This document shows, piece after piece, positions 24,001 through 27,000 of a stretch of 33,803 bases of DNA. The stretch lies in assembly GCF_003334335.1 (NCBI RefSeq), contig NZ_QOWQ01000045.1. One strand, written 5' to 3'. How positions within the stretch are numbered: position 1 is the stretch's first letter; each line of letters begins with the position of its first letter. Source of the stretch: Escherichia coli (GTDB lineage Bacteria > Pseudomonadota > Gammaproteobacteria > Enterobacterales > Enterobacteriaceae). Made by a program: the position numbers.

Positions 24001-27000
24001 ACCATTTGGGAAAATGGCAGAGTGAAAGCACTGCTTGCCAGCGCAAGACTGCCAAGTGCGGAGGTTTTCATCAGACTTCTACGGCTGATTTCAGCCTTCA
24101 TGAGCGCCTCTGTGGTATGGATTTTCATCATTACTCACTTATTGCTTTTCAAACAAAATGTCATGCCAGAATTTATGGTTGTCGTGGGTTATATTTTTTC
24201 GATCTCGACCAGATTAGTGTGCTGCGGGTTTCCCTTCGCCAGTGGTGAAGGGCGCAGAGTGGTTAGCGTATTCACACAGCCGCCATGGTCGATTTTATCG
24301 CCAGACATATTGGCCTCGTGCCAGGCTCCCTGGCCCATAGCGCTAACTCCAGGGAGAATACGTGGTGTTACTTTGGCTGGTAGCCGAACTTCGCCACGAT
24401 GGTTAAACACCCGCACCATATCGCCGTTGGCAATCCCACGTTTCTGCGCATCTATAGGGTTGATCCACACCTCCTGACGGCAGGCAGCCTTCAGGAGATC
24501 AATATTGCCGTAGGTCGAGTGAGTACGGGATTTGTAATGGAAACCAAACAGTTGCAGTGGGAAGGTTCTACGTTCAGGGGAGTTCCAGCCTTCAAAGGTT
24601 GAGGCATAAACTGGCAATGGGCTTATCACTTCATCTTTTTCCAGTTCCCAGGTACGGGCAATTTCCGCCAGCCTGCTGGAATAAATTTCAATCTTACCGG
24701 AAGGCGTTTTAAGTGGATTTGCCTCGGGGTCGTCACGAAATGCTTTGTAGGCGACAAAATGGCCATTGGGATCTTTACGCTTATAGATACCCATTTTTTT
24801 CAGTTCGTCGTAAGACGGTAACGCCGGATCTTTGGCAAGCATTTTGGCGTACAGATGTTGTAACCATTGTTCCTGCGTGCGACCTTCTGTGAACTTTTGA
24901 TAGACGTCAGGTCCAAGACGTTTCGCGACTTCACTCAGGATCCAGTAAATCGGTTTGCGTTCGAATTTTTCGCTGGTGACAGGCTGGAGGAAAATGAGAT
25001 ATCCCATGTTACCGGCGTAGTCGTTAGGAATAATATCTTCCTGCTCAACGGTCATCAGGTCTGGCAGCAGAATGTCGGCATATTTTGCCGATGAGGTCAT
25101 AAAGTTTTCGATGACCACAATCATTTCGCATTTCGATTCGTCCTGCAGAATTTCATGCGTTTTGTTGATGTCAGAATGCTGATTAACGAGGGTATTTCCC
25201 GCGTAGTTCCAGATGAACTTAATGGGCACATCCAGTTTATCTTTGCCGCGGACGCCGTCGCGGATTGCCGTCATTTGCGGACCATGATCGATAGCATCTG
25301 TCCAGCTGAAGCAGGAGATTGACGTTTTGACCGGATTATCCAGCACCGGCAGGCGTTCTATGGTAATGGTATAGGTCGATTCACGCGCGCCACTATTTCC
25401 GCCGCTGATGCCGACATTGCCCGTCAAAATAGGTAACATAGCAATAGCGCGTGCAGTCAGTTCGCCGTTTGCCTGGCGTTGTGGCCCCCAGCCCTGGCAG
25501 ATATAAGCGGGTTTTGCTGTGCCAATTTCACGCGCCAGTTTGATGATACGGTCCTCCGGGATACCGGTAATTTGCGAAGCCCACTGCGGCGTTTTCGCTG
25601 TTTTATCGTCACCTTCACCAAGAATATAGGCTTTATAGTGACCATTTTTGGGTGCATCTGCGGGTAAGGTTTTTTCGTCATAGCCGACGCAGTATTTATC
25701 GAGAAAAGGTTGATCAACGAGATTTTCGTTAATCAATACCCAGGCAATACCCGCAACCAGCGCGGCATCGGTGCCCGGGCGAATAGGGAGCCATTCGTCT
25801 TCACGACCGGCAGCCGTATCGGTATATCGCGGATCGATAACAATCATTTTGGCGTTCGATTTCTCGCGCGCTTTTTCAAGAAGATAAGTGATGCCACCAC
25901 CGCTCATGCGGGTTTCTGCCGGGTTGTTACCAAACATCACGACCAGCTTGCTGTTTTCAATATCCGTGGTGCTGTTGCCATCATTACTGCCGTAGGTGTA
26001 GGGCATGGCACAGGAAATTTGCGCAGTGCTGTAGGAGCCATACTGGTTGAGTGAACCGCCGTAGCAGTTCATCAGGCGTTTGACCGCCGAGGCTGATGGC
26101 GAAGAGCGGGTCATATTGCCGCCAACGATCCCCGAAGAGTACTGAATATATACAGCCTCATTGCCATATTGTTCGACGGTTTTCTTCAGGCTACTGGCGA
26201 TAGTATCCAGGGCTTCATCCCAGCTAATCCGTTCGAATTTGCCTTCGCCGCGTTTGCCCACGCGTTTCATTGGGTAATTCAAGCGATCGGGATGATTAAT
26301 ACGCCGGCGGATGGAGCGACCGCGCAAACAGGCGCGTACCTGATGGTTGCCGTACTCATCGCTGCCGGTATTGTCAGTTTCCACCCAGGTCACTTCATTA
26401 TCTTTAACATGTAGACGAAGTGCACAGCGGCTACCACAGTTGACGGAACAGGCACCCCAGACCACTTTTTCGCGGGCCTGTTGTACCGCTGCTGCTGCAT
26501 TGCGCAGGGTAAACGGCAAAGAAAAACCGCCTGCAGCCAGCGCCAGAGAACCTATCGCGGTAGATTTAACGAGTGTTCTGCGGCTGATGCCCACCATTCG
26601 TTCATTTTTGGACATAACTCACTCCCTGTTCTTTATCGTTATATAAAAGTTTATATATTGAATATTTAGCGCGCTAACAATAGAGGGAGTCTACCCATTT
26701 TGGGTTAAGAATTATTAATCCATATCAATAGAAGGGTATGAGTAATAAGGTGGGATTATGTTGTATGTTCAAATCGCCGGATTTGTCATATCCGGCGTTC
26801 AGTCGATAATGTGTTACTGCGGTTCGGCAGGCGCGCCATCCTGGCTAGACTGCGCGGGAGCAGAGACGTTACCGCTGGTGGTGCGGGTATAGAGAATTTT
26901 ATGCGTATCATTAGCGCAATGGCCGACGACCTGGGAATCAGGCTGATCAACCTGGTCATTGGGTACAATACTTAACGTGAAGCTGCTTTCGGGTACGCCA

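Follow-up and report, generated by a model that had tools for sequence, protein, structure and literature searches.

The FNR box of the ynfE promoter is that of K-12

In a 33,803-nucleotide stretch of the genome of an Escherichia coli strain (assembly GCF_003334335.1, contig NZ_QOWQ01000045.1), referred to from here on as the window, the region between ynfD and ynfE carries an inverted repeat that resembles a binding site of the transcription factor FNR. This box is almost certainly a class II FNR operator, belonging to the sigma-70 promoter of the ynfEFGH-dmsD (selenate reductase) operon, also written ynfEFGHI. Compared base for base, it is the FNR site already published for ynfEFGH-dmsD of E. 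coli K-12, and the identification, though correct, is not new. Sequence identity with K-12, the score of the box against a matrix of published FNR sites, and the conservation across Enterobacterales of both the box and an adjacent 7-2-7 element of the NarL type are observed directly in the DNA. Published work on K-12, where the sequence is identical, has shown that FNR occupies the site in vivo, that expression is anaerobic and FNR-dependent, that sigma-70 occupancy is higher without oxygen, and that the site lies at -40.5.

The centre of the box, at 26721.5, precedes the A of the ynfE start codon (26615) by 106.5 nt, and the box as a whole lies 100-113 nt upstream of that A. Compared with the consensus TTGAT-N4-ATCAA, ttaatccatatcaa has one mismatch (9 of 10 consensus positions agree), and the promoter-proximal half-site (26715-26719) reads ATTAA in place of ATCAA. 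The ynfD-ynfE intergenic region (26616-26813, 198 bp) has a G+C content of 35%, versus 50% for the window as a whole. A first-pass annotation of the window had described a box at this location with a single consensus mismatch, about 100 bp upstream of ynfE in AT-rich intergenic DNA, and in each of these respects its description agrees with the sequence.

From the end of ynfD into ynfE, a stretch of 235 bp, the DNA is 100% identical to that of E. coli K-12 MG1655, including the 14-mer, its distance to ynfE, the candidate -10 hexamer and the 7-2-7 element, so that experiments made with K-12 apply directly to the DNA of the window. In Table S6 of Myers et al. 2013 (PMC3688515), TTGATATGGATTAA is listed as the ynfE site, at an FNR peak in chromatin immunoprecipitation sequencing (ChIP-seq), with a PatSer score of 13.01 (ln p -11.5) that exceeds the authors' threshold, and in both Tables S5 and S6 the site is marked “+” for a ChIP-seq peak. 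The coordinate given in Table S6, 1,655,980, is consistent with that of the box in the MG1655 record (ynfE ATG at 1,658,069 in NC_000913.3), assuming an offset between genome versions. Table 1 of the same paper places ynfEFGH-dmsD in category 1, the operons that FNR activates directly, with a single site at -40.5 (counted, according to its footnote, from the known transcription start of EcoCyc or Kim et al.) and with sigma-70 occupancy and expression both raised in the absence of oxygen. Among peaks that differ between growth with and without oxygen (Table S2), the sigma-70 ChIP signal of the ynfE operon is 27 vs 709; the aerobic-anaerobic expression ratios in Table S12 are 0.026 to 0.058 for ynfE to ynfH (0.027 for ynfE itself), and the comparison of wild type with fnr mutant in Table S8 classes the operon as “Activated”. 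Passages in several other papers credit Xu, Busby and Browning 2009 with FNR activation and NarL repression of the ynfE promoter, and a memory circuit built on this promoter by Naydich et al. 2019 responded solely without oxygen and without nitrate. The first-pass annotation had proposed anaerobic activation of ynfEFGH through the box, and this proposal is supported, given that the identical 14-mer is the published K-12 site of a directly FNR-activated operon. It had also named two outcomes that would speak against the proposal, namely a transcription start incompatible with a class II site and a lack of FNR dependence; the published K-12 data show neither, with the site at -40.5 and the operon activated by FNR.

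The strength of the box was assessed with a symmetrised weight matrix built from 62 other FNR sites at ChIP-seq peaks (Table S6 of Myers et al. 2013), with the ynfE site excluded. Scored in this way, as the first-pass annotation had recommended, the box reaches 13.5 bits, which puts it first among the window's 33,790 positions and ahead of 11 of the 62 sites in the training set. When the ynfD-ynfE intergenic region is shuffled, the score of the box is matched in 126 of 20,000 trials (0.6%). The bare count of consensus matches in the window was dropped as evidence because 4 of 100 shuffled sequences equal it, and the matrix from published ChIP-bound sites was used instead.

Conservation of the box across Enterobacterales

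To collect orthologous loci, residues 1-150 of YnfE were searched against a single genome from each species, and 80 loci were returned; the 53 used are those of other Enterobacterales species in which the match starts at residue 1 with an ATG. At 30 of the 53, the FNR matrix finds a match of 9 bits or more whose centre lies 98-112 nt ahead of the ATG, and among the 36 matches of that strength that lie anywhere within 300 nt upstream, 31 are found 90-119 nt from the ATG. Alignment of 21 of the upstream regions (from Escherichia, Salmonella, Citrobacter, Raoultella, Leclercia, Enterobacter, Lelliottia, Phytobacter, Kosakonia, Klebsiella and Superficieibacter) has a mean column identity of 57%, and in it the distal TTGA and the proximal TAA of the box are invariant, as is the TA that opens the -10 hexamer. 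Within E. coli, the 70-bp promoter core is found exactly (at least 99% identity) in 3,063 of 5,293 genomes, and in six variants sampled the half-sites are unchanged, the only change in the 14-mer being an A to G substitution in the spacer. The box thus forms a phylogenetic footprint, retained in both sequence and position while its flanks diverge, and this is what a functional operator predicts.

The imperfect proximal half-site is itself shared. ATTAA, rather than ATCAA, is common to Escherichia, Salmonella, Citrobacter, Enterobacter, Leclercia, Lelliottia and Phytobacter, and in other genera the proximal half-site is weaker still. Conservation of what is formally a mismatch suggests selection for a sub-optimal FNR site, or possibly for a signal that overlaps it.

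Promoter architecture and proposed mechanism

Taking the published -40.5 position as given, simple arithmetic would place transcription initiation at an A that leaves a leader of 65 nt (Table 1). The published spacing would suit a class II promoter (-40.5, compared with -41.5 +/- 4), and a candidate -10 hexamer, TAGACT, begins 28.5 nt downstream of the centre of the box, with no recognisable -35 hexamer. A scan for sigma-70 consensus promoters returned no -35/-10 pair at the ynfE promoter, as expected since a class II promoter depends on its activator. A simple terminator scan between ynfD and ynfE found none, and an Rfam search of the ynfE leader (E of 1 or less) found no RNA family.

Between the box and the -10 hexamer, and overlapping the latter, lie two inverted heptamers with the sequence TAACCCA-AA-ATGGGTA. 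This is the arrangement of a NarL/NarP 7-2-7 operator, in which two inverted TACYYMT heptamers are separated by a 2-bp gap; the E. coli element has two mismatches to TACYYMT-NN-AKRRGTA, and its right heptamer, ATGGGTA, is perfect. The number of 7-2-7 motifs within the window alone is not significant. Across orthologues, an element with three mismatches or fewer occurs at a fixed offset of 22-23 bp from the centre of the FNR box at 41 of 54 loci, and several of the orthologous elements are perfect, for example TACCCATAAATAAGTA and TACTCATAAATGGGTA. The element is a candidate, and most likely the operator, for the published repression by nitrate and NarL. A literature search combining “7-2-7” with ynfE returned nothing usable. 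The assignments of both the -10 hexamer and the NarL operator are drawn from position and conservation.

We propose that, without oxygen, dimeric FNR carrying its [4Fe-4S] cluster binds TTGATATGGATTAA centred at -40.5, and that the bound protein would contact and recruit RNA polymerase to a promoter equipped with a weak -10 (TAGACT) and no -35. At class II FNR promoters, FNR contacts the alpha subunit and region 4 of sigma-70. With nitrate, phosphorylated NarL would repress, most likely by binding the 7-2-7 element over the -10.

The leader holds two further motifs. At 26641-26657 on the minus strand, approximately +25 to +41, is the sequence TATAT-AAACTTT-TATAT, an exact fit to TATAT-N7-TAYAT, which we take to be the consensus of the ModE operator. 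It is the sole such match in the window, with 0.09 expected. Among ynfE loci the strict pattern occurs in Escherichia only, while a cleaner palindrome, such as CGCTATAGATATCAATATATAGCG, is seen at the corresponding place in Salmonella, Citrobacter and a metagenome-assembled genome labelled as uncultured Raoultella. The second motif is a 12-bp palindrome, TTAGCGCGCTAA, at 26666-26677 on the minus strand (+5 to +16 of the inferred transcript). It sits in the block cATcATTAGCc.G.T, which is among the best-conserved parts of the 21-sequence alignment and is better conserved than the spacer of the FNR box; no known factor or RNA element was matched to it, and Rfam gave none.

An operon interrupted by a prophage

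The genes and regulatory features are collected in Table 1. The promoter, ynfE and ynfF are intact and identical to those of K-12, and it is the downstream context alone that sets this locus apart from the K-12 operon, in that ynfG is here interrupted by a prophage. Identity of ynfG with K-12 extends from 21694 to 21610 and stops at codon 28, the boundary lying between 21610 and 21609, beyond which the sequence is that of the prophage; the truncated ynfG and prophage end that the first-pass annotation had reported are thus real structures. In E. coli strain G1/2, which is identical across the junction, the stub is annotated as a partial 4Fe-4S protein pseudogene and the prophage spans approximately 62 kb, with the 3' part of ynfG, ynfH and dmsD located beyond the prophage integrase at the far end, i.e. 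some 62 kb away.

Table 1. Genes, promoter elements and prophage features of the ynfE region, in window coordinates.
Feature	Position	Strand	Description and basis
ynfD	26814..27119	-	open reading frame list and RefSeq annotation; identical DNA of other E. coli genomes
FNR binding site of the ynfE promoter	26715..26728	-	+ strand reads ttaatccatatcaa; ynfE sense strand reads TTGATATGGATTAA
Candidate NarL/NarP-type 7-2-7 inverted heptamers	26692..26707	-	TAACCCA-AA-ATGGGTA; centre -18.5; overlaps the -10; between FNR box and -10
Candidate -10 hexamer	26688..26693	-	TAGACT, -12 to -7; read from sequence
Inferred transcription start (A)	26681	-	arithmetic from published -40.5 position; implies a 65-nt 5' untranslated region
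ynfE	24189..26615	-	first gene of operon, 808 aa, intact; open reading frame; WP_000041675.1 in a K-12 derivative and in lysogen G1/2
ynfF	21705..24131	-	second gene of operon, intact; open reading frame and annotation
Truncated ynfG	21581..21694	-	37-codon open reading frame: 28 native codons, 9 phage-derived (VGYVSFKIN), stop
Right-hand 21.6 kb of 933W/POCJ13-like short-tailed lambdoid prophage	1..21609	.	inserted in ynfG
Terminator-like long hairpin with UUUUUU	21330..21404 (hairpin 21404..21336)	-	-27.5 kcal/mol, z = -2.9; putative function

Positions 1-21593 of the window match the right end of Escherichia phage PhiR5_2 (PV340546.1, 61.5 kb) with 100% identity; against Shigella phages POCJ13 and 75/02 Stx, and against phages that convert their hosts to Shiga toxin (Stx) production, the identity of this stretch is approximately 91%. 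The gene ynfG is a documented attachment site of this phage group: experiments have shown that phi-POC-J13 inserts into ynfG of MG1655, and an avian Shiga toxin-producing E. coli has been reported to carry a Stx1a prophage in this gene. The ynfG-prophage junction is present in 19 of 5,426 complete E. coli genomes.

If the promoter behaves in the lysogen as it does in K-12, it would yield YnfE, YnfF and a YnfG stub of 37 amino acids, and transcription would then enter prophage DNA. Two ant genes and ibrAB of the prophage share the orientation of ynfEF. It is conceivable, and in our judgement very unlikely, that under anaerobic conditions without nitrate a read-through controlled by FNR and NarL runs past the stub into ant and ibrAB, modulating derepression of the prophage or expression of its morons, with polar loss of ynfG'-ynfH-dmsD in addition. 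For transcripts leaving the stub, the terminator-like hairpin of Table 1 lies approximately 270 nt inside the prophage and ahead of the ant genes, and it recurs when a larger context is folded; with its tract of six U residues, the hairpin argues that most read-through transcripts would end before the ant genes. It was not flagged by the simple terminator scan, because of the length of its loop. The dmsD product is a chaperone required for maturation of DmsA, YnfE and YnfF, and with approximately 62 kb of prophage separating dmsD from the ynfE promoter a polar effect on DMSO (dimethyl sulfoxide) reductase is possible.

Alternative explanations

One alternative is that the near-match arose by chance in an intergenic region rich in A and T, and that the box has no regulatory role. 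One-mismatch matches to the consensus are indeed common, with five in the window against 1.7 expected (four of 100 shuffles get to five), the other four are without an apparent FNR role, and a G+C content of 35% raises the chance rate approximately threefold. Against this, the identical K-12 sequence lies at an FNR ChIP-seq peak upstream of an operon listed as FNR-activated, no other position in the window scores as high against the matrix, and the box holds a fixed distance both to ynfE and to the 7-2-7 element across many genera in spite of diverging flanks, all of which makes coincidence exceedingly improbable. Equally remote is that another protein of the CRP/FNR family, such as CRP, is the main binder. 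The two proteins recognise related inverted repeats, and flanks as AT-rich as these could suit CRP. The half-sites here are TTGAT and ATTAA with a 4-bp spacer, not TGTGA-N6-TCACA, and identity as a CRP site was rejected since half-site sequence and spacing are both of the FNR type. The T before GA, the base that tells FNR sites from CRP sites, is in its FNR version here and is invariant across genera. ChIP-seq places FNR itself at the ynfE site. The medium in which FNR dependence was seen was glucose minimal medium, and the authors presume that CRP is inactive under this condition.

A different kind of objection holds that FNR does bind, but that in the lysogen the promoter is a purposeless relic that drives a crippled operon. 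With ynfG cut at codon 28 and its remainder, ynfH and dmsD some 62 kb away past the prophage, YnfE and YnfF would lose their Fe-S and membrane-anchor partners unless the paralogous DmsB and DmsC stand in for them. The promoter, ynfE and ynfF are nevertheless intact and K-12-identical, and the prophage is of an excisable, site-specific phage type; we regard a relic as possible, and on balance doubtful. This objection concerns the consequence of binding rather than the identity of the site, and as such it is compatible with an FNR operator and no true alternative to it. Several considerations do weigh against the FNR operator, or temper it. The bare consensus count in the window, taken alone, is not significant. 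Orthologous sequences share descent, so that their conservation does not count as a set of independent events. The functional literature on the ynfE promoter covers K-12 and Nissle, and it is from there, not from the present strain, that the functional evidence comes. For the start site and for the location of the NarL site we rely on secondary sources and on our own reading of the sequence. Finally, because the proximal half-site is imperfect (ATTAA) and 11 of the 62 training sites score lower, the box is, to judge from its bases, a moderate rather than a strong site.

Related systems and significance

The closest comparison within E. coli is with dmsABC, the paralogous DMSO reductase operon, which is likewise a class II FNR-activated and NarL-repressed system, with its FNR site at -41.5. 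Like the ynfE operon it encodes a paralogous molybdoenzyme, whereas the locus and the sequence of the site differ. The dmsA promoter is also dependent on ModE, while for ModE control of ynfE our literature search found no report. Among orthologous systems, a 2025 paper on Enterobacter cloacae SLD1a-1 gives ttgatgaggattaa as the FNR site of the selenate reductase operon srnABCD (upstream of srnA), and the same 14-mer is also present at several Enterobacter loci orthologous to ynfE. Its half-sites are the same as those of the box described here, including the imperfect ATTAA, as is its distance from the ATG in the Enterobacter loci, whereas the spacer bases differ; the srnABCD box was assigned by sequence inspection only, and that operon has a single catalytic gene.

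Beyond a correct annotation the box has little significance of its own, the site, its regulator and its position having been published for K-12. What is added here is that an FNR box with an imperfect proximal half-site, combined with a NarL-type 7-2-7 element at a fixed offset, is an architecture common to many Enterobacterales, and that the promoter, in the strain described here, drives an operon that a prophage has interrupted at a site already known for phage attachment. Such a broken operon could matter for the selenate and DMSO respiration phenotypes of lysogens of this kind. Were read-through and polarity to hold, ynfG'-ynfH-dmsD would be severed from their promoter, which could impair the maturation of DMSO reductase.

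Other observations in the window

Near the junction, a hairpin with a 17-bp stem, formed by a tandem duplication of GCAAAGCTTTGT, lies just within the prophage end (21499-21538, minus strand) and appears also in the fold of the junction. A sigma-70-like promoter, TTGACA-18-CATACT (10 of 12 consensus positions, 21384-21413, minus strand), is located inside the 5' arm of the terminator-like hairpin, and could give rise to a short phage transcript. Further into the prophage, each of the two ant (antirepressor) genes has a full-length match to the Rfam family sRNA-Xcc1 (RF02221) immediately upstream of it; the matches, on the minus strand at 20672-20757 and 21206-21294, score 73.4 and 69.1 bits, where the gathering score is 53. 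An intact open reading frame of 2,789 amino acids occupies 8817-17186 on the plus strand; its counterpart is annotated as a frameshifted LPD38-domain protein in G1/2 and as an LPD5-domain protein in phage POCJ13.

At the other end of the window, adjoining rspB, an intact integrase (431 amino acids) and an open reading frame of excisionase size (31976-33542, minus strand) belong to a second lambdoid prophage. Since K-12 has only a decayed Qin remnant there, this is not a K-12 strain, in spite of its identical ynf promoter. FNR-like boxes also occur elsewhere in the window: TTGATGGATATCAT (13.0 bits) at 3947-3960 is within a phage open reading frame, TTGATAAATATTAA (12.6 bits) at 31961-31974 adjoins the stop-codon end of the integrase open reading frame (31976-33271), and TTGAACAGGATCAA at 31736-31749 is close to the end of rspB.

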